Source: a virus
Lineage: Duplodnaviria; Heunggongvirae; Uroviricota; Caudoviricetes
Reading direction: 5' to 3' (one strand)
Virus record (IMG/VR): IMGVR_UViG_2917393062_000005
Coordinates: 1 to 36,279 of that record
Length of the DNA: 36,279 bases
The position numbers were made by a program, and so were the translations under genes. Below are positions 3,042 through 30,172 of the stretch, piece by piece (the stretch's first letter is position 1; the number at the start of each line of letters is the position of its first letter). Under the pieces are notes generated by a model. The model did no database searches and was not told the origin of the DNA. It saw only the letters and a program-made list of their open reading frames with translations.

Positions 3042-4172
3042 TCACTCTGTTTCCGCTATCCATTCCGGGATTTTTGCCTCAAGCTCAAGCTGTGTGGTAA
3101 AGCCGCTGTTATCAATGGTGTGCTCGGCTTTTGCAATAATCCAGTCCTGATTATCAATCTCGCTTTTAAATCCTGTTACCGTGCCATGCATTTCGGGGTA
3201 GAGTTCTGCGCGTCCACGTGCCAGTGTGATGGAGAATGATGCGGCTCCGCGTTGTAACTGCTGCCACTTTGCCGCCGCTGCGCGTCTTGCTGCCTGCTCG
3301 TTCTGATAAGTCTTGCGTAACACAAACACATTGCCTTCCGCGCCTTCCATATAATCACCTTCACGGCTGCTGCTTTTCTCCTTTTTGGGTTTTGGCGGTT
3401 TGCGGCGTTTCACGCTGACTTTTTTCTTTTTCCCGTAATTAAGATCAAGCCAGTAGGCGCGTACCCCCGTATACGCCTCGCGGTCAGCAATACGGAACTG
3501 ATGGCGATCGCCGCTGCTGCGTGTAATGGCGAACGAGGGCAACGGCTGGCCCTGTGCGTTCACGCCACCACCTGGCATGATGAATAACAGATTGCCGCTT
3601 TTTACCGTGGTGATTGCGCCCAGCATTTCCGCCATGCGCGTAAGGAAGGACATGTCGCTTTCTTCGGTCTGGTCGGCGTGGTCGATTTCGATATCCATCA
3701 GCATTTCGCTGATTTGTGGTTTCAGACCATACCGATGAGCGATGGCGGATACCACACGCTCAAGGGTCACATCATGCCATGACACCTCACGTTTAACGTT
3801 AAATTCATCCCGAAAATCTGCGCTTCTGGCTGAAACAGTCAGCCTGTCCGGCGGTCCTTCGTGAGCGATTTCATCAACAATGTAAGTGCCTTTTTCTGTC
3901 AGCGGTTCTCCTTTCCAGCCAATGAGAACCGTCAGGCGCGCGCCCCGTGGCGGTAGCTGCAACTGACCATCCGCATCATCCAGCGTGATGGTGAGCTGGT
4001 CCGCTTCAAATCCCCGGTTGTCGGTCAGTGACAGACTCATCAGGCGCTCTGCCACGCCGGACAGCGTTTCCCCCTCCGCGAGAATATCAAAATCCGGCAT
4101 TTTCACGGGGTCTGTGCTCTGACTGAGCAATTGCATGGTGGTGTCGATCATCTTTCCCTCCCTGTGTGGCAT
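3042..4172 (-). CDS. D: Tail protein D (late control gene D)
   Basis: LMSLSLTDNRGFEADQL, FLTRMAE, lysine-rich basic stretch and SGFTTQLELE all match P2 gpD as recalled. True start may be the downstream Met (MIDTT...). Confidence 0.9.
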   Translation of the reverse strand: MPHREGKMIDTTMQLLSQSTDPVKMPDFDILAEGETLSGVAERLMSLSLTDNRGFEADQLTITLDDADGQLQLPPRGARLTVLIGWKGEPLTEKGTYIVDEIAHEGPPDRLTVSARSADFRDEFNVKREVSWHDVTLERVVSAIAHRYGLKPQISEMLMDIEIDHADQTEESDMSFLTRMAEMLGAITTVKSGNLLFIMPGGGVNAQGQPLPSFAITRSSGDRHQFRIADREAYTGVRAYWLDLNYGKKKKVSVKRRKPPKPKKEKSSSREGDYMEGAEGNVFVLRKTYQNEQAARRAAAAKWQQLQRGAASFSITLARGRAELYPEMHGTVTGFKSEIDNQDWIIAKAEHTIDNSGFTTQLELEAKIPEWIAETE

Positions 4173-4307: not shown

Positions 4308-5492
4308 ATGAGTGAAACTCGTTTTCATGGTGCCCGTGTTACGGAAAGTACCGACTTGGTAACAGCGATTAATGATGTTGATTCCAGTGTTATCGGTATC
4401 GTGGCAACGGCGGATGATGCGGATGCGGAGCTGTTCCCGCTGAACAAGCCCACACTGCTGACCCGCGTCAATGACGTGCTGGGAAAATGCGGAACAACGG
4501 GGACGCTTTATCGTGCGCTTAAGGCCATCGCAGACCAGGTGAGCACAAAGGTGATCGTCGTTCGCGTGGCTGAACACAAAGAAGAAGACGGAAAGACGCA
4601 GGATCAACTGGTTATCGGTGGTTCTGAGGATGACGGCAGCTATACGGGGATGTATGCGCTGCTTGTTGCAGAGCAGGATGAAAGCATCGGATACCGTCCG
4701 CGTATTCTGGCCGCGCCGGAGCTGGACACGGAGGCGGTAACAAAATCCCTGTGCGTGATTGCGGGTAAACTGCGCGCGTTTGTGTATGCCTCATGTCACG
4801 GCTGTAACACGATGGCTGAGGCGATTACCTACCGCCAGAAATTCAACGAACGTGAGGTGATGCTCTTATGGCCGGACTTCATCGCCTACAACCCGAAAAG
4901 TGGCAAAAACGAAACGTTCCCCGCGCCTGCCTATGCGTGCGGCCTTCGTGCGTACATTGACCATGAGCAGGGCTGGCACAAATCGCTGTCCAACGTTCCG
5001 GTTAAAAATGTGCTGGGGATGTCCAGGCATGTGTTCTGGTCGTTGCAGGCCGAAGACAGTGATGCCAACAGCCTCAACAACAAAGAAATCACGACCATTA
5101 TTCGTCGCAACGGGTTCCGCTTCTGGGGCAACCGCACACCGGAAACGAACGCCTACATCTTTGAGGTGTATACCCGAACCGCACAGGTGCTGGCTGATTC
5201 AATTGCGGAAGCGCAGTTTGAAACCATCGACAGTCCACTGACGCCTGCGAACGTGAAAGATGTTATCAGTGCCATCAGGGCAAAACTGGATTCACTGGTT
5301 ACTGCCGGGAAACTGATTGGCGCGGAGTGCTGGTATGACGTGGTGGATAATAGCACCACGGATTTACGTCAGGGGCGTGTGCGTATTCGCTACAAATATA
5401 CGCCCGTTCCGCCACTGGAAGACATGGAGCTTTACCAGACGTTTACTGATGAATACTTTGAACCCGCATTTGCGGTGCTGGGAGGTGCCTGA
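4308..5492 (+). CDS. FI: Contractile tail sheath protein FI
   Basis: 394 aa; AELFPLNKP, GFRFWGNRT and YKYTPVPPLE motifs match P2 FI. Confidence 0.93.
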   Translation: MSETRFHGARVTESTDLVTAINDVDSSVIGIVATADDADAELFPLNKPTLLTRVNDVLGKCGTTGTLYRALKAIADQVSTKVIVVRVAEHKEEDGKTQDQLVIGGSEDDGSYTGMYALLVAEQDESIGYRPRILAAPELDTEAVTKSLCVIAGKLRAFVYASCHGCNTMAEAITYRQKFNEREVMLLWPDFIAYNPKSGKNETFPAPAYACGLRAYIDHEQGWHKSLSNVPVKNVLGMSRHVFWSLQAEDSDANSLNNKEITTIIRRNGFRFWGNRTPETNAYIFEVYTRTAQVLADSIAEAQFETIDSPLTPANVKDVISAIRAKLDSLVTAGKLIGAECWYDVVDNSTTDLRQGRVRIRYKYTPVPPLEDMELYQTFTDEYFEPAFAVLGGA

Positions 5493-9388: not shown

Positions 9389-9883
9389 ATGGCCATGATG
9401 ATGATCTACGGCATGTTTGTTTTTGAGCTGCGCACATTGCCGCATCAGCAGTTACAGCAAAACAAAAGCTGGCGGCATGTGAAAAATGAACGCGTTAACC
9501 GTTCAGCAAGCTGGCAGTATATCGGTGCAGGTGATGATCGCATCGTTCTTTCTGGTGTGCTTTATCCTGAAATCACAGGTGGCGAAGTGTCCCTGTCGCT
9601 GCTGACCACACAGGCGTATACCGGACGCCCCTGGCCTCTGATTGATGGCGTCGGGCAGATTTACGGCATGTATGTTCTGACTGACATAAGTACGACCCGC
9701 TCCGAGTTTGATCGCTACGGCAAGGCGAAAAAGATAGAGTTTTCACTGACCCTTGAACGCTGTGATGAGGATTTGCGGGAGCGCCTGCAATCCTCATCGT
9801 TCAGCGATATGCTGACTGGCTTCAAAGATAAGGTAACCTCGTCTTTAAATAGCGTGGCTAACTCAGTTCATAGTTTATTTTAA
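9389..9883 (+). CDS. U: Tail protein U
   Basis: 164 aa immediately after T; size and position match P2 gpU. Confidence 0.8.
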   Translation: MAMMMIYGMFVFELRTLPHQQLQQNKSWRHVKNERVNRSASWQYIGAGDDRIVLSGVLYPEITGGEVSLSLLTTQAYTGRPWPLIDGVGQIYGMYVLTDISTTRSEFDRYGKAKKIEFSLTLERCDEDLRERLQSSSFSDMLTGFKDKVTSSLNSVANSVHSLF

Positions 9884-9904
9884 AGAGTTTAATTTCTTGT
9901 GATA

Positions 9905-9930
9905 AATGGTCCGTAACATATCGGACCATT
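9905..9930. repeat. Perfect 9-bp-stem palindrome AATGGTCCG-N8-CGGACCATT downstream of U
   Basis: Seen in sequence; no T-run follows, so it is either a protein-binding palindrome or a weak terminator. Confidence 0.3.
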
Positions 9931-10064
9931 CAAGCACATTACATGTTGGTTCCATCTTATTGAATGCATCCAGTAGCCACAATATAATTTCTTGAGAGTT
10001 CATTACACACCCAGTCAGATTAACACCCCATTACATTGTAAGTGATAATGCAGAGATTAAATTC

Positions 10065-10607
10065 ATGGATATAAAAACATTAAAGGAGTGTATAAAAATA
10101 GAAGTTATAGGCGGAAACCATGAGTTTTCATGGAGAAAAGCTTTAACTCGCACCAGACGCAATAGGCGAAAACACTTTATGTTTTGGTGGCGAGTGGCCA
10201 GCTATCTATACAGCAGAGGAGGGTTCATGCGCTGGGTGGGCAAACGCATCGGAGCAAACCTTCATCGCGATTATAATGTTGAGATTCCTTTAACAGTGAG
10301 TATAGGGCCAGGCTTAGATATTGCTCACTTATCAGGTATTGTTATTACAGAAAACTGTGTGATAGGGAGAAATCTACATATAAAGCAAGGTGTTACTATT
10401 GGTCTAAGAACCCCTTCCAATGAGGCAATGATTACTATTGGAGATAATGTTGATATAGGTTGCAATTCATCTATCCTTGGTGGGCAAGTTAATATCGGTG
10501 ATAACGTTACGATAGGTGCTCATGCTCTGGTAACAAAATCTATTCCTTCCAACTCAATATATATAAACGAAATAACTCCTGTTATAAGACAAAAAAAGGC
10601 GCAGTAA
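10065..10607 (+). CDS. Hexapeptide-repeat (left-handed beta-helix) acyl/acetyltransferase, moron gene
   Basis: Repeated [LIV]-G-x-x-x-x hexapeptides (IGRNLHI, VTIGL, ITIGDNVDIG, VNIGDNVTIG), WcaF/CysE-like. Markedly AT-rich compared with flanking tail genes. True start may be internal. Confidence 0.75.
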   Translation: MDIKTLKECIKIEVIGGNHEFSWRKALTRTRRNRRKHFMFWWRVASYLYSRGGFMRWVGKRIGANLHRDYNVEIPLTVSIGPGLDIAHLSGIVITENCVIGRNLHIKQGVTIGLRTPSNEAMITIGDNVDIGCNSSILGGQVNIGDNVTIGAHALVTKSIPSNSIYINEITPVIRQKKAQ

Positions 10608-10619
10608 GCGCCTTTTTTC
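10590..10619. terminator. Bidirectional rho-independent terminator shared by the acyltransferase (plus) and G (minus)
   Basis: AAAAAAA-GGCGC-AGTAA-GCGCC-TTTTTT: hairpin flanked by an A-run and a T-run between convergent stop codons. Confidence 0.75.
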
Positions 10620-11193
10620 ATGGTTGCTCTGGCCAATCAATATCGGTGGTATTTTCTGGTTGAATACGATTCACCAATACACGGTACTTCTTCCAGCGTG
10701 TCAAGTTTATCTTTTCGTCTTCTGTCGCTATATCTAAATCAACAGCGTCCTGCAAAGTAGCAATGATCTTACTCGCATAAGCGATTTGTTCTCTCTTCTG
10801 AGATTCGGCGGCTCTGACAAGTGCATCACGCTCTGCATTCTCATCATTCACCCACGCATTTCCGTTCCATTTCTGATAATTCCCATCGGGGAAAATGGTT
10901 GTCACGTCTGGGGGTAATGCACCAAGTTCAGAAATATAAATGGCCGTTCCCGTTTTCGTTTCGTAGACAGTCTCTCCGCGATGGTCTTCCATCAACTCCC
11001 ATTTCATTTCATTTGCATTGAAAACGGCAGCAAAACCCGCCGGAATATCAGGCGGCGCAATATCTGTACTGTTTGCAGGCAGACCTGTATACGGTGGAAT
11101 ATATGCGTCACTTTCACCAATAAATTCGTTTGTACCATCGAGATAATTAAATACGCGAATAATTTGTGCTTCTGCACTCATTTTAAAACCCAT
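10618..11193 (-). CDS. G: Tail fiber assembly chaperone G
   Basis: 191 aa directly downstream of H with overlapping start/stop; GxxxYxxxxGxxP-type N-terminus typical of tail fiber assembly proteins. Confidence 0.8.
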
Positions 11194-13811
11194 TATGCAA
11201 GCCTCACAATATAGTTAAATGCGATGTTTTTGACGGTGTTTTCGGTATTGCCAGTAGCATTTACGGTAATGGAATGCCCGTGTGAGCCAATAGCAACAGT
11301 GTGTGAATGTGCACCAATACCAACAGTATGGTTATGTGCTCCAATGTCGACTGTATGTGCATGATTGCCTGATGAACTTGTAGTCGTAGCACCTTTATCA
11401 CTTCGCGGAACACCATAATCTGCACCGCCTGATTGCACGCTCACAGCAAAACCGACGGTATGTGTATGATTGCCAGAAGTATTGGTTGATTTTGTGCCGT
11501 GGTTAAACGTACTGACTGTTTTTGTCCCGTAATCAAATGAACTGGTCGTTTTCGTCCCTAAGTCCGTATTTGACGCACTGGCGCTGTGAGTATGCGATTT
11601 AATCCCGTCCTGTTCCTGTGACAATACGGCACGCCCACTGGCGGGTTTTCCCTTGATTGTCCAGCCGCGCATATCAGGAATAACACCTGAAGGATAGGCT
11701 ATAGCCAGTTTCGGATATGCAGCCTTATCGAACGTCTGCCCCTGCATAATTGCATAGCCCGCAGGTGGTGTATCTGATGGCCACGGCAACGGAACACCTG
11801 GCGGAAACGCTTCGATATTTGCCGACCCGTCAAATTTTACGCCGTTAATTGTCCTTGCCGTTTTCAGCTTTGTCGCTGTAGCAGCATTGCCGGACAGTTC
11901 GCCTGAAAGACCACCGCTGAATGTCTGTTTCGCCGCCCATGTCTGAGCTTCGTCGATAATTGGCACACGTCTTGTTGTGATCGTGCGACTTCCCGGATTT
12001 CCTGAAATACGCACCATAAAAAAGCGGTAATTCGCTTTACTTACAGTGCTGCGCCATACATGCATTGAGCGCCCCGTACCGGAATCATCACTCGGACCAA
12101 CTGCGATGTTTATCAGGTTGCCATCAATGACGCCCCAGTCCATGCCGTCGGGAATGTTGGTCATGTTATCAAGCCGAACGGTTATCAGACTGCCCGGCAC
12201 AAAGTCGTAGGTCTGCCAGTCCAGGCTGGTGAGTTTTGCCACTGCGCCACCGATGCCCAGATTCAGAGGCAACGAAAAGGAGTTATATACTTCTCGCCAT
12301 TCGGTCCATTTGCTCCCGGCGTAGACGCGCTCAAAAGTGCGCCCCTGTGTGGTTTCTGATTTCCCTGTGGTTGTGTAACGCTGCCAGACAGACACACCAT
12401 CAAAACGTCTGATTACTTCCAGTATCCCAAGCAGTGTTGCTCCAGCGGTATCCTGCATTGGACCGTTTGTTGCCTTCCCTGTAACGCTGTAAATGCCAGG
12501 TGAAGTCAGATCATTCAAATCCCCTTCGTAATAACGACACTCTGACTGATGGCCCACTCTTGACCACGGTTCCCACTGTGGATTCTCTGCATTCCATGTA
12601 GCAGAAAGGCAGCGAACATATACATTCCCCCGGCGGGTCGTGTAACGTTGCATGCGTGAGTACCCACCACCTTCAAGAACTTCAAGGAGTCCCTGACCAT
12701 AACTTCCTTCTTCTGGATAGTTGCGGTCAAATGAAGCGATAGAACCACTACTGTTTCGCCATAAACCAAGATGCTCTGCGCCTCCGAGCGTGTTCAGGTC
12801 AATGGTTGTACTCAGAGGGCGTGTTGCTGACTGAATCTGTCGCCAGTAGCTCCACGGACCGTCAGAGCCATTCCAGGAACCAGCAAGGTTGCGCATATAA
12901 ACATTGCCAGTTCTGGTGGTATAACGCTGCATTCCTACAAAATTACCGCCATTGAATACCTCAAGAACACCGACGGCACCGTCTTCCGGGAAATGTTTCT
13001 CCAGTGTTGCGTTGGAGGATGTGGATTTATACCAGACCCCCACATAAGCCTTAACAGGACCAAACGTATTCAGATCAGCATCAAGCGGCATTTCGCCATT
13101 GTTTTTCATAAACGTCAGGCTGGTAACGCCAACATTGTCCAGAAAAGCGCCCTTATCTGGAATATCGTCACCGTTCTGGTCTTTCTGCAGACGTTTCTCA
13201 GCATTGTCATAGGCTGCTTTTACTGCCTTTGGCGTTGCCGCCAGCTCTTCACTGGTGCTGTTTGTTGCACTGCTTAACTGGGTAAAACCTTTTTCTGTCA
13301 GCGTGGCGTCAGGATGGCGGCGGGACTGCTCATGCTCTGCGATTTTGTCATCGACGTAATCCTGCGTCGCCATCACTGTGCTGGCATCAATACTCAGCTC
13401 AACGGACGCCACATTGCTGAGAATAATAACCATGCGGCAGGTCTGCGCACGCCCGGAGCCTTCAGCCAGTTCAGGCTTATAGCTTTCCGCCATGTTGGCG
13501 ACCGCAATCAGTGTTCCGGCATCGTCATACAGACCAAGCTCACGCATCCAGAAGCCGCCCACTTCTGGCGGAACAACCAGTTCAGCCACGATATAGTTTT
13601 TATTCTTATTATCCACGCTGACTTTATTCAGGGCGTGACGCCAGACCTCATGCACCAGTTTCGTCTGACCGGCATCCGGCACCGGCAATTTGCCATTACC
13701 GTCACCCACGGCCATTGCAGACAGGGTTACTTTTTTCCCGCCGGGGACAGTGGCGGCTGCCAGCTTTGCGGCTCCGGCAGTAGTGATAACGGTTTTAAAT
13801 TTCGTGCTCAT
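11193..13811 (-). CDS. H: Tail fiber protein H
   Basis: 872 aa; N-terminal about 200 aa match P2 gpH closely ([63 protein letters not shown]). C-terminus carries HxH repeats. Confidence 0.93.
11222..11420 (-). repeat. Imperfect tandem repeats encoding HxH motifs at the H C-terminus
   Basis: Protein repeats NHTHTV, NHAHTV, AHNHTV, AHSHTV, SHGHSI, with corresponding repeated nucleotide blocks. Confidence 0.6.
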
Positions 13812-26328: not shown

Positions 26329-27288
26329 TTACTCCTTGTCCATTGCGTACAGCCCATTAACCAGAGCAAACTGTGGCACCCCGTCCGCGATGAAAGTCGC
26401 ATTAACTCCGCAGGCTTCGCGGATAGCGGGTGCCACAATCTCCGCCCCTCCACCGACAACCATCACCCGCCCGTAACCCGAAAAACCCGCCAGCGCGCGG
26501 ATCACGCGTTGTTTCAGTGTTTCTTCCTTTTCACGAATAACCGCCATCAGGCTGGCGTAATGCGCGTCATTGTGGATGTGCTGGCGCAGCCAGGCTTCAT
26601 CATGGCGATGTTCGATAATGGTATTGGCGATGTGGTGACTGGTGCGCATACCGTTAGTGGCCATCACCGACAGTACGGCATCGGCCATCAGAGAAACGCC
26701 TACGTGTGGATCGCAAAACACCTGGCTGATACCTGCCAGTTGCCCCTGAACCTTTGCCACATCCAGCGTGGTTCCGCCCAAATCCACAATCAGCAGGGAT
26801 TCAAACGGACTCATGTCAGCCAGTGCCTTAAAGCCAGCCGGAATGGATTCAGGCATAACCCGCACGTTACGGATAGTGAATGCTTCGCCGTTCTGGTACT
26901 CCACCGGGCGCATAACGTTCGCTTTTTTGCGGTTGATGTTGGCCATGTCCGGCTGTGCGTTTGTGTCGAAATACTCGCTCAGTGGCAGGGTGACAACCAC
27001 ATCCACCTCCTGTGGCGTGATGCCTGATTTGACCAGCGCGTGATGAATGGCAATGACATTTACATCGCTGTATTGGTATTGCGTGTCGGTTGTCTGGACA
27101 AAGCGATCGCTGACCGGATCAAAACCATAGCGCACTCCATCAAGCATGTAGTTCGCGGGCTGCATGCCACCGAACGGCGCAGACCATTCCGACTTGAAGC
27201 TGTTCGGGCTGATGGCGTTGCGGCGTTCGCCGTTCTCAGTCCATGCCAGCTTGATGTTGGTGGAGCCGTCGTCGATACAAATTTTCAT
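26329..27288 (-). CDS. parM: ParM/StbA actin-like partition ATPase
   Basis: 319 aa with the ParM motif series: IDDGSTNIKL, ISPNSF, QYSDVNV, HHAL, QPDMANI.RKKAN, VMPESIPAG, DLGGTTLD, GISQ, GVSL, VGGGAE, LVNGLY. Confidence 0.85.
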   Translation of the reverse strand: MKICIDDGSTNIKLAWTENGERRNAISPNSFKSEWSAPFGGMQPANYMLDGVRYGFDPVSDRFVQTTDTQYQYSDVNVIAIHHALVKSGITPQEVDVVVTLPLSEYFDTNAQPDMANINRKKANVMRPVEYQNGEAFTIRNVRVMPESIPAGFKALADMSPFESLLIVDLGGTTLDVAKVQGQLAGISQVFCDPHVGVSLMADAVLSVMATNGMRTSHHIANTIIEHRHDEAWLRQHIHNDAHYASLMAVIREKEETLKQRVIRALAGFSGYGRVMVVGGGAEIVAPAIREACGVNATFIADGVPQFALVNGLYAMDKE

Positions 27289-27440
27289 GTCGCTTTTCCT
27301 TATGTTGATTAATTAATCGTTTACGGGATTCTGAAATCCCGTTTTTGCCTGTTTTGCGCGCACTTCATGTTTTATGGCACGTTTTTTGCTCATTTACGGG
27401 ATTTGTGAATCCCATTTCTGTCTGTTTTTTGTTTCCACTG
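27289..27440. repeat. Two about 36-bp direct repeats, each with an 8-bp palindrome, upstream of parM; candidate parC-like centromere/operator
   Basis: TTTACGGGATTCTGAAATCCCGTTTTTGCCTGTTTT (about 27320-27355) and TTTACGGGATTTGTGAATCCCATTTCTGTCTGTTTT (about 27393-27430); the second lies within the A 3' end. Also a 12-bp palindrome GATTAATTAATC at 27306-27317. Confidence 0.5.
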
Positions 27441-30172
27441 GTCAGGCCACCCCGCAGCAGGTCTGCTTTGCGGTGGGCGCGTTCAGTGGTTTCACTGATT
27501 CTCTGTGCGTGCTCTGCGTCACGGATGGCGCGCAGCATGTCAGAAAGCACGGTAACGGGGGTTTTCATGGTGTTCTGGTCCTGCTGAAGTGTGGATGCCA
27601 GACGTGCGGCGGCTTCAGGGTCTGATGCCCCCAGCTGTGCCAGATAGCTGGCGACCGGGTTATGGCGGATCTCCGTGCTGCTTACGCCGTGATTACGGCT
27701 CAGGCGCTGCCAGAGCTGCGTGATTCGGCTGTCCGGGCGGGTATCCGGTTTGCGTACAATTTCAAATCCCTGCGGTGCAATGATGCTGCCGTCAACGTAC
27801 AGACTGCCGCCCCGTAACAGGTGCTGCATCTGTTGTTCACCGATATGCAGGCCGAGAGATTCAGCAGACTCCCGCCATTCTTTAGCGAGTAATTCGTGGT
27901 TATCAGGCAAAGGCCGCTGCTGTTTGCGGCTCTGTGTCCAGCTCTGCATTTCATCACTGCTGTTTTTTGCCTGTTTGTCACGCAGCGAACGCATCAGCGC
28001 CCGGCGTTCGTGCCGTTTCAGTGAGCGCATCCATTCGTTCACTTCAACGCCGTCAGGGAGCTGCGGCCACGGTGCTGGCCGTTCTTCCGGCTGTTCTGTC
28101 CCGTTGTTGTCCGTTTCCTGTACACGGGGACAGTTATTGCCACGAGTCCAAGGGGCGGCAGGGCCGCCCTGAAGGTCAAAACCATTTTCGTGGGTGCTGT
28201 CTTCCGCTTCCGGTTTACGTCTTACCAGCTTCCAGTTATCCGGGTGCGTGCACACACGGGAGGATTCCCCGATGAGTGGCGACCAGATCCCGTAAATCTG
28301 TACACTCTGTTCGCCGTAATCGTTCAGCTCATCTGCGAGGTCGTAGGCTGTGCGAATCAGGTAGTCCTTGCGCGGAACAAGTACGCCACCCTGTTTTTCA
28401 ATGTAGGTGGCAAAACACCCGGCATCAGCGGCAGCAAGAACCGCATCCATTGCGTCATCCTTCAGCCGTTGCGGGCCTTCCGGGTTGCGTGCCATCTGGC
28501 TGGCAAGGCGGCGGAGTTCACGCCACACCTGACGGGAGGGAATGCCAAAGAACTGGAACTGGCGGACCCGGTGAAGGCGCGCCCAGCCGATGGCGCGTTC
28601 CACGCTCTCGGCCATTGATTTTCCGGTTTCGTGGTCAACGCGTGGCTTGCCCGTTTTCGGGTCGATGCCATCCACGGCGCGGCTGTCCAGGTTCTTTCCG
28701 ATGTAGGTGGCGATGTAGCTGGTTGGTGTGCCTTTTGAGCCGTCGACATACTCCACCTTAAAGCGCGGAGTAATATCATTGCCCAGCTCGTGGCGGTCTT
28801 CCTGAATGGCAATATCGCGGGTGATGGCCACGATGCTGTCGATTTCTTCCGGATGAGCAAAGACCATCATGTGCCAGTGCACGGTGCCGTCATGGTGAGG
28901 CTCCACCGTGCGGATGCCATACCAGCGCAGGCCGTCGCGGTTCAGTTTTTTGCGGACCGCCGCAAAAAACGTGTTAACCAGGTAATCGCTGGAGTCGCGC
29001 ATGGTGGCTCCGTTCCATTTGGGATTCGGATGACCGTTCTCTGTTGTGGCGTGGTATTTTGACGGGCAGGTGACAGTCAGAAACACCGCTTTGTCGCCAC
29101 GGGCTTCGGCCAGAAGTTCCAGCCCCTTCATGGTGGCCATCATTTCTGCCTTACGGTGAACTGGGTTACTTACTCCCGCGTAATACACTGTCTCGAGATC
29201 AATAGTGAACCCGTCTTCGTTTTCCAGCATGAAACTTTTCAGAAAATCGCGTGTTTTCTCGCGCTGTGCGCGAAACTCGCTTAACGCGTCCTGGCTCAGA
29301 TAGGGCGATGTTTTTCTGGAAACCAGACAGGCGGCGCGGAGTTGTTCTTCTCTCCACTCGCAACGTAACAGCCACAGTTTGCGTTTCCACCATTGCGCAC
29401 AGGTCAGGCGAAGGATTGCGCCCGGTAACAGTTCCGTATCCGGATCGCTCTTGTTCAGGGCTTCGTAATGTGGCGGCATGATGTGCAGGCATAATGCGAT
29501 ACGGGCCAGCATCCGGTAAGCCTTCAACATTACATCCATGGTCAGCTCGCCATCTCTGGCACCAAAGCCATCGCAGAGTGTTTCGAAGGTGCTGCTGAAC
29601 ATCGCCGCCGTCATGGTGGCCAGCGTCTGTATCTGGTGCTTGTTGAGCTGCGGCAGGTAAAGCAAATCGTCCAGGCGTTCACGCCCGGCAAGGGAGCGAT
29701 AACCCGGTGTCAGCCAGCGTCCGTCAGTGCGATCCAGACGTTCGAATATTTTGCGCAGGGTTCCGCGTGCATAGCGTTCAGCCTGCCAGCTCTTTTTGCC
29801 TTTCTGACGATCGGCTTCCTGTTTTTTGCGCAGGAAGGAGAGGTGGCGAATAAGCGGATCGCGCAGATAGGACGGCAGCAGGCGCAGCGAGGCCATGGCT
29901 TCATCCACCGCGCCGCGTGCCTGTTTTCTGGCGTCTCCTGCCAGTGTGATGGTTTTGTCCTGTTTTTCCTGTGCGTCCAGGCTTTTATTAATCAGGTTGC
30001 CCAGCGGCGTGGCGGAGAACGCCGCATCAGCCATTTCCTGGCAGCGCTCGTTCTCTGCCCGGTAGGCATCCAGCCAGGAGGAAAGCGCGGATTCAGGAGT
30101 GGGGATCTCCGTTCCTTCACGCCCCACTGCGTGGCGCGGTTGTTGCCAGTCCCTGATGTACTCTGCCGTCAT
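27365..30172 (-). CDS. A: Replication initiation endonuclease A (rolling-circle, GPA family)
   Basis: 935 aa; tandem-tyrosine active-site motif PTSYIATYIGKNLDS typical of P2 gpA-like proteins; located upstream of the cos-proximal locus. Confidence 0.85.
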   Translation of the reverse strand: MTAEYIRDWQQPRHAVGREGTEIPTPESALSSWLDAYRAENERCQEMADAAFSATPLGNLINKSLDAQEKQDKTITLAGDARKQARGAVDEAMASLRLLPSYLRDPLIRHLSFLRKKQEADRQKGKKSWQAERYARGTLRKIFERLDRTDGRWLTPGYRSLAGRERLDDLLYLPQLNKHQIQTLATMTAAMFSSTFETLCDGFGARDGELTMDVMLKAYRMLARIALCLHIMPPHYEALNKSDPDTELLPGAILRLTCAQWWKRKLWLLRCEWREEQLRAACLVSRKTSPYLSQDALSEFRAQREKTRDFLKSFMLENEDGFTIDLETVYYAGVSNPVHRKAEMMATMKGLELLAEARGDKAVFLTVTCPSKYHATTENGHPNPKWNGATMRDSSDYLVNTFFAAVRKKLNRDGLRWYGIRTVEPHHDGTVHWHMMVFAHPEEIDSIVAITRDIAIQEDRHELGNDITPRFKVEYVDGSKGTPTSYIATYIGKNLDSRAVDGIDPKTGKPRVDHETGKSMAESVERAIGWARLHRVRQFQFFGIPSRQVWRELRRLASQMARNPEGPQRLKDDAMDAVLAAADAGCFATYIEKQGGVLVPRKDYLIRTAYDLADELNDYGEQSVQIYGIWSPLIGESSRVCTHPDNWKLVRRKPEAEDSTHENGFDLQGGPAAPWTRGNNCPRVQETDNNGTEQPEERPAPWPQLPDGVEVNEWMRSLKRHERRALMRSLRDKQAKNSSDEMQSWTQSRKQQRPLPDNHELLAKEWRESAESLGLHIGEQQMQHLLRGGSLYVDGSIIAPQGFEIVRKPDTRPDSRITQLWQRLSRNHGVSSTEIRHNPVASYLAQLGASDPEAAARLASTLQQDQNTMKTPVTVLSDMLRAIRDAEHAQRISETTERAHRKADLLRGGLTSGNKKQTEMGFTNPVNEQKTCHKT

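Follow-up and report, generated by a model that had tools for sequence, protein, structure and literature searches.

A prophage left-handed beta-helix acetyltransferase paired with tail fibre genes: a candidate modifier of the lipopolysaccharide core

The acetyltransferase gene described here is convergent with a gene for a tail fibre assembly protein (Tfa), and this same convergent pairing recurs across unrelated phage backbones. Its product is best explained, from sequence comparisons and a predicted structure, as an acetyl-CoA-dependent left-handed beta-helix (LbH) O-acetyltransferase of an uncharacterised family with the CysE/WcaB fold. It may act as a lysogenic-conversion enzyme which O-acetylates the core of the lipopolysaccharide (LPS) and so masks a phage receptor, a proposal whose substrate rests on gene neighbourhood and which we consider about evenly poised between right and wrong. 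The window, by which is meant the whole stretch of 36,279 nucleotides that was analysed, is by its sequence a P88-like phage of the P2 family, and the acetyltransferase is cargo of the prophage.

Fold and family of the protein

The gene (10065..10607, + strand, ATG start) encodes 180 amino acids that match PHROG 2154, a mostly phage-borne family without assigned function, over nearly the whole profile (E 6e-61, 206 bits, residues 2-178 on profile positions 5-182 of 185). An initial annotation of this DNA had called the product a soluble hexapeptide-repeat acyltransferase and had set the hexapeptide architecture beforehand as the feature to be checked, and that architecture is present by profile and by predicted structure. 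The Pfam Hexapep model gives 31.8 bits against a cut-off of 27, and a six-residue register marked by an aliphatic residue is kept in seven of seven units from residue 73 to 114 and persists over 122-169; the layout is one of a four-helix N-terminal domain (residues 3-70) followed by some 14 hexapeptide units (73-169). Compared with profiles of PDB entries, the family profile finds the LbH domain of solved serine acetyltransferases (E 1.4e-23). The quality of structure prediction depended on the alignment: a first AlphaFold model from 26 sequences resolved the beta-helix poorly (pLDDT 50-70) and with it Foldseek returned nothing significant, whereas a second, monomer model from 56 sequences (pLDDT 84.8, pTM 0.81) led Foldseek to the solved serine acetyltransferases at E 2.6e-8 and TM 0.70-0.74.

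The nearest relatives by subfamily profile are of the CysE/WcaB/EpsC type, with which the protein shares a helical N-terminal part, the LbH domain and a His/Asp pair, and which give its best sequence and structure matches. NCBIfam scores are 82 bits for EpsC (cut-off 150), 72.6 for cysE and 65-66 for WcaB (cut-offs around 195-196), so that the protein stays under every curated cut-off; WcaF reaches only 24.8 bits, and of the WcaF/CysE-like repeats read earlier it is the CysE likeness that survives. H88 aligns with H158 of CysE and E73 with D143, which makes E73 and H88 the putative catalytic pair; a His/acidic pair is also present in WcaB-type enzymes and hence does not discriminate for CysE.

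Could the protein be what the databases call it, a genuine serine O-acetyltransferase carried as an auxiliary metabolic gene that increases the synthesis of cysteine? The name serine acetyltransferase is the one used by database sources, CysE proteins are the closest solved structures and, in Proteus, the start of a homologue abuts or overlaps the stop of a true cysE gene. Nevertheless the cysE models fall far below their cut-offs (TIGR01172 72.6 against 210.65; NF008349 41.8 against 397), and identity to a true CysE is 24% only. In place of the SATase_N domain (PF06426), absent by Pfam, stands the short four-helix domain, and when the protein is aligned with a true CysE, about 90 N-terminal residues remain without a partner. 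A87, A121 and M122 occupy the positions aligned with CysE D157, R192 and H193, and the D92 region of CysE and its C-terminal CysK-binding tail are absent from the aligned protein; D92, D157, R192 and H193 are, we take it, the serine-binding residues of the E. coli and H. influenzae structures. Among the homologue neighbourhoods examined none was in a cys locus, nor was any within a wca, eps or capsule locus. A genuine serine acetyltransferase is therefore hardly credible: the protein shares the fold of CysE without being a serine acetyltransferase, and the database name is wrong for a family that is common, uncharacterised and uniformly labelled with it.

In the most abundant allele group of the family Thr and Tyr replace the acidic residue and the His, which sits badly with a uniform catalytic role across the family. 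A profile search of genome contigs gave mostly distant CysE-like genes from unrelated phyla, with two useful loci only (L008 and L009). In the literature found on the family there was no biochemical or genetic test of any member, and the remarks made on phages JL22 (PMC9603915) and phiNP (PMC6456863) call the presence of the acetyltransferase unexplained and give no tested function.

The exchanged module and the transcription unit

The gene follows gpU (9389..9883, + strand; Pfam Phage_P2_GpU, E 3.4e-40), the last gene of the FI-FII-E-T-U operon, and converges on Tfa (10618..11193, - strand; 191 amino acids, P2 gpG type; Pfam Caudo_TAP, E 2.4e-36), beside which lies the gene for tail fibre H (11193..13811, - strand; 872 amino acids; Pfam Phage_tail_fib, Phage_fiber_2 and Collar). 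Nucleotide identity of gpU to P88 is 95% up to 9868, where homology to the P88 backbone breaks 15 nucleotides before the gpU stop, to return at 13207. What had been taken for a single inserted gene is therefore part of an exchanged host-range module of 3.3 kb (9869..13206, genes on both strands, 46% GC) made up of the acetyltransferase, Tfa and the distal ~670 residues of fibre H (11193-13206), and the N-terminal part of the fibre (13207-13811) belongs to the P88-like backbone.

In all five reference P88-like phages examined (P88, P884B11, 503458, 500465-2 and phiSM) this slot holds a DNA invertase and an invertible fibre segment, and so the acetyltransferase does not lie, as a moron would, between genes that are adjacent in related phages. 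The slot resembles the invertase slots of P88-like and P1-like phages in being a variable cargo and host-range region beside the Tfa gene, and differs from that of the reference phages in carrying an acetyltransferase instead of a Cin/Gin-type invertase with alternative fibre tips; in P1-like elements the invertase cassette has been replaced in the same way. The Z/fun locus of P2 is likewise a variable cargo and host-range region adjoining the Tfa gene, and the window gene had been assigned to the equivalent position, between the fibre genes and the sheath/tube operon. Physically it does lie between the two, but at the 3' end of the operon, and the Z/fun equivalence fails: Z/fun stands between G and FI with the operons co-directional, whereas in the window the operon runs towards the H-G fibre genes and the slot is between the 3' ends of convergent operons, with FI (4308..5492) 4.6 kb away at the opposite end.

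The span that first drew attention, 9884-10619, comprises the open reading frame, a non-coding AT-rich leader of 181 bp (9884..10064, + strand, 35.4% GC) and the terminator. Its distinct composition is borne out, since the acetyltransferase gene has 38.9% GC against 52.6% for the window and a GC3 of 31.5% against 59% for gpT; the low-GC island is broader than the gene, taking in Tfa (43.6% GC) and extending to about 11500. The bidirectional intrinsic terminator, too, is as described, a hairpin at 10592..10618 that serves the acetyltransferase on one strand and Tfa on the other. Its arms, AAAAAAGGCGC (10592-10602) and GCGCCTTTTTT (10608-10618), are 11 bp long and 100% complementary, enclose the 5-nucleotide loop agtaa and are flanked by A6 and T6, and the folding energy is -16.1 kcal/mol on the + strand and -18.7 kcal/mol on the - strand (z about -2.5). 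The TAA stop of the acetyltransferase (10605-10607) is within the loop and the Tfa stop (10618-10620, - strand) overlaps the last base of an arm. A simple consensus terminator scan missed this hairpin.

Within the leader there is a 9-bp hairpin at 9905-9930 that lacks a U-tract, and there are two sigma-70-like sites, TTGAAT-17-TATAAT at 9960-9988 and TTAACA-18-GATAAT at 10020-10049, each with 10 of 12 hexamer positions matched. Such sites are at chance level in the region (7, against 5.8 +/- 2.3 in shuffles), and when the leader was compared across allele groups it was not conserved and no common regulatory element was found. Distinct composition, promoter-like hexamers and an own terminator speak for an independent transcription unit, although the hexamers do not exceed chance. 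Tandem Repeats Finder detected no tandem repeats in 9700-10800, which rules out phase variation of the NeuO kind.

A minus-strand frame of 42 amino acids within and around the leader (9875-10003) is treated as spurious: it has no match in Pfam, PHROGs or PADLOC, is not conserved, is unrelated to the frame at the equivalent place in phage yong2 and was dropped as a gene. An Rfam scan of 9700-10800 gave sub-threshold matches only, among them a weak similarity of the terminator shared with Tfa to sRNA terminators, and an IS009 match (36 bits against a cut-off of 117) that falls within the Tfa coding region and was discarded.

Linkage to Tfa and the fibre tip

A convergent Tfa gene lies within 36 bp of the acetyltransferase, or overlaps it, at 57 of 80 IMG/VR loci, which corresponds to 8 of 27 clusters at 90% identity, and in about 11 further clusters another fibre or tail gene adjoins it. 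The convergent pair is also found in phages yong2, 613R2, phiNP and JL22, in a P1-like phage-plasmid, in a Mu-like Salmonella prophage and in a prophage remnant adjoining icd, which is presumably e14-like. Between a P1-like element and the P88-like phage 613R2 a block of 3.2 kb is 94% identical; it begins in the leader, 70 bp ahead of the acetyltransferase, and takes in Tfa and the distal fibre. Across pairs, which are not independent of each other, acetyltransferase identity co-varies with that of Tfa (Spearman 0.75) and of the fibre tip (0.69). The enzyme and the fibre tip also reassort, for the acetyltransferases of the window and of phiNP are only 46-47% identical whereas their Tfa proteins and fibre tips are 70-80% identical (70% for Tfa, 80% for the C-terminal 200 amino acids of the fibre). 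Adsorption of phiNP requires the waaO-dependent GlcII of the LPS outer core (PMC6456863).

Such tight physical linkage to Tfa and the fibre tip across backbones would be expected if the enzyme modified a virion component, namely the tail fibre or Tfa, or aided fibre assembly in lytic growth. In the window, moreover, the gene runs in the same direction as the late FI-U operon, and gpU and the acetyltransferase are not separated by a U-tract terminator, so that late read-through from gpU is possible. However, the gene invariably converges on the fibre operon and is never part of it, and the upstream context varies (gpU in the window, hicAB in phiNP, a recA-like gene in yong2, the lyd region in P1-like elements), so that co-transcription with tail genes is not conserved. 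Those chromosomal members that lie in LPS operons, furthermore, have no fibre partner, and we know of no precedent for protein acetylation by LbH enzymes. An action on the virion, which the initial annotation had kept as a second option, thus finds no support and is very improbable.

The region downstream of tail fibre genes is a general cargo hot spot, and so the linkage to Tfa may reflect a tolerated site and physical hitch-hiking rather than function. Some family members are at other cargo sites, beside integrases at prophage ends; one (L151) adjoins a repressor-like S24-peptidase gene, and others are alone in chromosomes (L009, and another beside a Usp gene). Other LbH enzymes acetylate small molecules, and an enzyme for defence or some other cargo function, with a small molecule such as a xenobiotic, an antibiotic or a signalling nucleotide as substrate, would be at home in a hot spot of this kind, the more so as P2-like phages carry varied cargo in the equivalent slot, Z/fun and NeaT among it (PMC3573123). 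Against such an enzyme PADLOC finds no defence-system match for the acetyltransferase, and none of the xenobiotic, maltose and galactoside acetyltransferase models matches strongly, the scores being 27-29 bits where cut-offs exceed 300. A small-molecule substrate would also leave the repeated embedding of the family in LPS core operons, to which we turn below, without explanation, and is accordingly quite improbable.

Chromosomal neighbourhoods and the possible substrate

The two clearest chromosomal contexts are core operons. In Leminorella grimontii the homologue (45% identical, E 9e-53, residues 2-174) is the last gene of a core operon in the order GT1, WaaP, GT4, GT8, WaaY, WaaZ, acetyltransferase, followed by a convergent WaaL. 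In a cluster of the Pseudomonas mendocina type the homologue (45% identical, E 1e-39) overlaps by 4 nucleotides an upstream GT2 gene, which is itself preceded by a carbamoyltransferase gene. The cluster starts with a GT1 gene and several Kdo/WaaP-family kinase genes and runs to an ABC-transporter gene; by its position the latter may be msbA, and the cluster is read as an LPS core operon. Pseudomonas cores are O-acetylated, and the enzymes responsible have not been identified (PMC8005017). In two phage loci (L155 and L166) the acetyltransferase has a WaaZ-like gene as its partner, and in Photorhabdus the homologue is flanked by a sulfatase-family gene and a GT25 gene, with Tfa and fibre genes beside it. 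The Rosenbergiella and Proteus homologues described below have LPS-related neighbours as well. The Leminorella and Pseudomonas neighbourhoods point to the LPS core oligosaccharide rather than to capsule or O-antigen as the probable substrate. The earlier idea, that of lysogenic conversion through a surface glycan or a phage receptor, stays the most plausible one, and it is the core that is now favoured.

Another envelope polysaccharide acetylated at the cytoplasmic face, be it the O-antigen unit, colanic acid, enterobacterial common antigen or capsule, would make this a classical serotype conversion of the NeuO or WcaB/WbbJ type. The best NCBIfam similarities are indeed to exopolysaccharide enzymes (EpsC and WcaB), yet the scores are far under the curated cut-offs (82 against 150; 66 against 196) and, among the neighbourhoods examined, no homologue sat in a wca, eps or capsule locus. 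Proteus homologues sit at the edge of the O-antigen locus, once with a GT2 gene after them, which would suit an O-antigen enzyme, but the gene is there in 60 of 60 serotypes, invariant, and the authors of the source thought it unrelated to O-antigen synthesis. A Rosenbergiella homologue adjoins an OafA-type O-antigen acetyltransferase, and Klebsiella prophage acetyltransferases associate with capsule type (PMC13123978), both of which would suit a polysaccharide other than the core. On the opposite side, the clearest chromosomal contexts are the core operons just described, and the co-inherited fibre tip resembles a core-binding tip and not an O-antigen-binding one. On balance a substrate among these other polysaccharides seems unlikely, though less so than the rivals discussed above.

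Modification of the core would extend a known theme, that of phage acetyltransferases which alter the phage's own receptor, as do Oac and NeuO and, by its position, perhaps NeaT. NeuO, of prophage CUS-3 in E. coli K1, is like the window protein a prophage-encoded soluble LbH O-acetyltransferase; its phage has a P22-like backbone and its gene is phase-variable through 5' heptanucleotide repeats. It differs in those repeats, as no tandem repeats occur at the window gene, in its capsule substrate and in belonging to the maltose/galactoside-acetyltransferase-type LbH subfamily, whose models score poorly here. Acting in the cytoplasm on polysialic acid, NeuO affects phage sensitivity and immune recognition (PMC3046976, PMC13001214). 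[quoted passage not shown] Oac of phage Sf6 and the OafA-type enzymes are the classical lysogenic-conversion acetyltransferases that change a phage's own receptor (PMC3630932), and differ in being membrane Acyl_transf_3 enzymes that act on O-antigen and are usually encoded beside int/att.

As for quite how acetylation of the LPS core would serve the phage, the gene would be transcribed in the lysogen from a promoter of its own, with transcription ending at the shared hairpin, and the enzyme would act in the cytoplasm, which supplies acetyl-CoA and is the site of core assembly on lipid A, to O-acetylate a core sugar. The modified core might then be bound poorly by fibres of the type encoded next door, and in this way the lysogen would be protected from superinfection and newly released phages would not be wasted on lysogens or their debris; altered surface antigenicity is a possible side effect.

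A wider and more tentative proposal, which we think somewhat less likely to be right than wrong, is that PHROG 2154 as a whole is a family of LPS-core O-acetyltransferases that travels as a cassette with a core-binding tip and its chaperone in P2/P88-, P1-, Mu- and e14-like phages. A phage would then import a 'key' (the tip) and a 'lock changer' (the enzyme) together, and in P88-like and P1-like phages the cassette would replace an invertase-driven switch between two tips. If this is so, the functions of binding and of modifying the receptor pass from phage to phage as one cassette, core modification joins the lysogenic-conversion repertoire, with a bearing on host range, phage therapy and LPS-based typing, and candidate enzymes can be named for the O-acetylation of Pseudomonas cores.

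With regard to distribution, the region has no megablast match in 5,426 complete E. coli genomes, and a protein identical to the window acetyltransferase is on record from Escherichia sp. E4930. Elsewhere in the family, one E. coli allele by itself is indexed across 594 blocks of the protein collection, and 783 member sequences are on record for the P1-like allele.

Position and boundaries of the acetyltransferase gene

The only gene within 9884-10619 is an ORF at 10065..10607 (+) encoding 180 aa, preceded by a 181-bp AT-rich leader and flanked on the left by gpU (9389..9883, +; Pfam Phage_P2_GpU, E 3.4e-40) and on the right by the tail fibre assembly gene tfa (10618..11193, −; Pfam Caudo_TAP, E 2.4e-36), with the 872-aa tail fibre H (11193..13811, −; Phage_tail_fib, Phage_fiber_2 and Collar) beyond. 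The feature is genuine, and of an ordinary sort: an acetyltransferase carried as prophage cargo. With 38.9% GC and 31.5% GC3, against 52.6% GC for the window and 59% GC3 for the tape-measure gene, it is as AT-rich and compositionally distinct as the initial annotation had it, and the low-GC island extends over tfa (43.6% GC) and tapers off within the fibre gene. The bidirectional terminator proposed there is also found: a perfect 11-bp inverted repeat AAAAAAGGCGC-agtaa-GCGCCTTTTTT at 10592-10618 folds on both strands (−16.1 kcal/mol on the + strand, −18.7 on the − strand), and since its loop holds the acetyltransferase stop codon and its last base overlaps that of Tfa, the two convergent genes share this one terminator. 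At 10652-10800 (−) Rfam gives a sub-threshold match to the candidate sRNA IS009, scoring 36 bits where the gathering score is 117 (E 1.5e-6); it falls inside tfa, toward the 3' end of the coding sequence, and probably reflects homology among tfa genes, not an RNA gene.

Promoter-like hexamers occur in the leader at 9960-9988 and 10020-10049, although such sites are no commoner than chance, and no leader conservation was found between allele groups. A perfect 9-bp hairpin AATGGTCCG / CGGACCATT with an 8-nt loop lies at 9905-9930, 22 nt past the gpU stop codon, and because it has no U-tract late read-through from gpU into the acetyltransferase is possible. Placed between late operon and cargo gene, this hairpin may act as a weak terminator or as a site of processing or regulation.

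T and U of the window are 94-95% identical to the genes of P88 and its relatives, and the phage is P88-like (genus Xuanwuvirus, Peduoviridae). In this group the FI-FII-E-T-U operon points toward the H-G fibre genes, with the protein D gene (3042..4172) on the opposite strand, and so the acetyltransferase comes 3' of gpU and convergent with Tfa, and not in the slot between G and FI that P2 uses for Z/fun, where it had been placed. Nor was a single gene inserted between the fibre genes and the sheath/tube operon: homology with P88 ends at 9868 and restarts at 13207, and so, as read from these limits, a whole 3.3-kb module is exchanged, comprising leader, acetyltransferase, Tfa and the distal ~670 fibre residues. 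In all five annotated P88-like phages examined (P88, P884B11, 503458, 500465-2 and phiSM) this slot is occupied by a DNA invertase together with an invertible segment that encodes alternative fibre tips and chaperones. More generally in P88-like and P1-like phages (window 9869-13206 versus comparison loci L001, L002, L182-L184 and L176, L007) the acetyltransferase/Tfa/fibre-tip cassette stands where reference genomes have a Cin/Gin-type invertase and invertible two-tip segment, and a fixed tip accompanied by an enzyme appears to have taken over from a switchable dual specificity.

Fold, family and the database name

The predicted hexapeptide-repeat, left-handed beta-helix (LbH) architecture is well founded. 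Pfam Hexapep passes its cut-off (31.8 bits vs 27), a six-residue register spans residues 73-169, and a 26-homologue profile hits serine acetyltransferases of solved structure in their beta-helix domain (E 1.4e-23). The first AlphaFold model resolved the helix region poorly, and its fold matches were all non-significant; a model from 56 homologues (pLDDT 84.8, pTM 0.81) matches serine acetyltransferase structures at E 2.6e-8 and TM 0.70-0.74. The general-base H88 and its acidic partner E73 are retained. The protein falls in PHROG 2154 (E 6e-61), a family annotated as 'unknown function' that the literature searched mentions only in passing.

Every source names the protein 'serine acetyltransferase', and its fold matches are to such enzymes, yet that it is a genuine one is highly improbable. 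It falls below the cut-offs of the cysE models (72.6 vs 210.65 and 41.8 vs 397), has no SATase_N domain, and when aligned with Proteus CysE (273 aa) lacks the D92 region and the C-terminal tail, with CysE D157, R192 and H193 aligned with A87, A121 and M122. We take the roles of D92, D157, R192 and H193 to be those in the E. coli and H. influenzae structures, and with these serine-binding residues lost the protein is, judged by sequence, not a serine acetyltransferase. Scores against the WcaB, EpsC and WcaF models are likewise far under each cut-off. In Proteus-type chromosomes (L168 5177-6558; L178 4180-5561) a genuine cysE is followed by a family member whose start coincides with the cysE stop codon or lies no more than 3 nt from it; the pair, placed between secB-gpsA and the O-antigen locus, is the 'two serine acetyltransferase genes' described for every one of the 60 Proteus serotypes, and this adjacency may be a reason why the annotation spread.

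One clade (alleles P0025, P0028, P0036 and P0037, loci L176 and L005; family alignments A1/A2) has Thr and Tyr at the acidic-residue and catalytic-His positions ('VTVPL...ISYLNG') where the window protein has E73 and H88. Among its alleles is the commonest one (783 member sequences, from P1-like phage-plasmids and from phage 613R2), and the clade may use a different mechanism or be non-catalytic.

In function the gene can be likened to NeuO, NeaT and Oac, although it belongs to none of those families. NeuO of prophage CUS-3 is likewise a soluble LbH enzyme, with capsule as substrate (PMC3046976), but is of another LbH subfamily and phase-variable, whereas no tandem repeats occur at the window gene. 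The AT-rich neaT gene in the P2-like prophage of CFT073 adjoins a Tfa homologue in opposite direction (PMC3573123), and Oac of phage Sf6 is a functionally similar cargo gene; both are membrane Acyl_transf_3 proteins, unlike the window protein.

Links to tail fibre genes and the LPS core

Homologues lie directly downstream of and convergent with tfa in four of four unrelated annotated phages (Hafnia phage yong2, E. coli phage 613R2, Citrobacter phiNP and the P1-like phage-plasmid JL22). Among 80 IMG/VR loci with relatives (39-99% identity) a convergent Tfa ORF lies no more than 36 bp away, or overlaps by 30 bp, in 57, representing 8 of 27 clusters at 90% identity, and in about 11 further clusters another fibre, baseplate or tail gene adjoins, recognised by Pfam (L134, L147, L148, L156, L167), by Tfa profile (L126, L155, L160) or by position alone (L153, L159, L162). 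A P1-like element with the allele of 783 member sequences shows the same Tfa arrangement, as do a Mu-like prophage of Salmonella and an icd-adjoining prophage remnant, taken as e14-like, on a contig carrying the protein recorded from Gibbsiella. On unrelated backbones the P1-like L176 and P88-like 613R2 have in common a 3.2-kb block (94% nucleotide identity) that starts 70 bp before the acetyltransferase gene, spans Tfa and reaches into the fibre gene. Pairwise acetyltransferase identity co-varies with Tfa and fibre-tip identity (Spearman 0.75 and 0.69), a descriptive measure only as the pairs are non-independent. A caveat on the fibre link is that the post-fibre region is a general cargo hot spot, and family members also occur after integrases, near a repressor-like gene (L151) and at the P2 A/Q cargo site (L138). 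An unrelated small-molecule or defence function at such a hot spot would sit with these locations; a PADLOC search gave no match for the window protein, and we consider it unlikely. Modification of a virion component would suit the fibre neighbourhood and sits poorly with copies in chromosomal LPS operons that have no fibre partner, and is very unlikely.

As a soluble acetyl-CoA-dependent enzyme the protein would have to work in the cytoplasm, and its chromosomal relatives are the best clue to its substrate. In Leminorella grimontii a homologue (45% identity across residues 2-174, E 9e-53) closes the LPS core operon (GT1, WaaP kinase, GT4, GT8, WaaY, WaaZ, acetyltransferase, convergent WaaL), occupying the K-12 waaU place next to a WaaZ 65% identical to that of K-12. 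This copy shares 59% identity with a Salmonella copy borne by a phage, more than the window protein shares with that Salmonella copy (48-49%), and so core-operon and phage genes belong to one family. A homologue in a Pseudomonas mendocina-type cluster (45% identical, E 1e-39) overlaps by 4 nt a GT2 gene located after a carbamoyltransferase gene. Around it stand GT1, several Kdo/WaaP-family kinase, the carbamoyltransferase, ABC transporter, Mig-14 and PIG-L family genes, in whose order we read waaG, waaP, wapO and msbA of the core operon. Pseudomonas cores are O-acetylated by enzymes not yet identified (PMC8005017). In the phage loci L155 (6564-7490) and L166 a WaaZ-like gene (28% identical to the WaaZ of E. 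coli K-12, E 2e-14, and to that of Leminorella) is paired with the acetyltransferase directly 3' of it, which suggests a multi-gene cargo remodelling the LPS core.

Other copies also have neighbours related to LPS: a sulfatase-family gene on one side and a GT25 gene on the other in Photorhabdus, with Tfa and fibre genes alongside, an OafA-type acyltransferase in Rosenbergiella, and the O-antigen locus edge, directly 3' of true cysE, in all 60 serotypes of Proteus. Another envelope glycan as substrate would fit the Rosenbergiella and Proteus contexts, the core operons fitting it less well, and is a minority reading. For the window gene we infer a lysogenic-conversion enzyme, expressed in the lysogen, that would O-acetylate an LPS-core sugar during the core's cytoplasmic assembly, a reading in which belief and doubt are about balanced. 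Against LPS-core acetylation count the chance-level hexamers, the unconserved leader, the missing U-tract after gpU, reassortment and the Thr/Tyr allele group.

Compared with phiNP, the window shows 70% identity in Tfa and 80% over the last 200 residues of the fibre. By experiment phiNP requires, for adsorption, the outer-core sugar GlcII of the LPS, which depends on waaO, and can do without OmpC and other common receptors; its family member is listed as a 'fitness' gene (PMC6456863). That member, 46-47% identical to the window protein, has the same convergent position, although acetyltransferase and fibre tip also reassort (47% vs 80% identity, window vs phiNP). With the core acetylated, the receptor used by the co-inherited type of fibre might be masked, so that superinfection is excluded and progeny are spared re-adsorption; this as the selected role is a more tentative proposal, less likely than LPS-core O-acetylation itself. 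The analysis thus corrects the position, rejects the database name and offers a testable hypothesis tying the family to the LPS core and a mobile fibre-tip cassette.

Other genes in the window

A 46-aa Hok/Gef-family toxin ORF (2407-2547, −; Pfam HOK_GEF, E 2.5e-8) adjoins ogr (2739-2999, Ogr_Delta) and protein D, at the place where P88 is annotated with a 'MokW-like host killing' gene. A DNA methyltransferase gene (1224-2015, −; N6_N4_Mtase) overlaps at its start with a zinc-ribbon ORF resembling Mu Com (1960-2166, −; Zn_ribbon_Com, E 1.1e-11), a layout recalling Mu com-mom with a methylase in place of mom, and a weak GemA-like ORF (1-993) comes next after the methyltransferase gene. A ParM/StbA actin-like segregation protein (26329-27288, −; E 2.7e-82) adjoins the replication gene A homologue (27365-30172), which in a P2-family prophage hints at plasmid-like maintenance.
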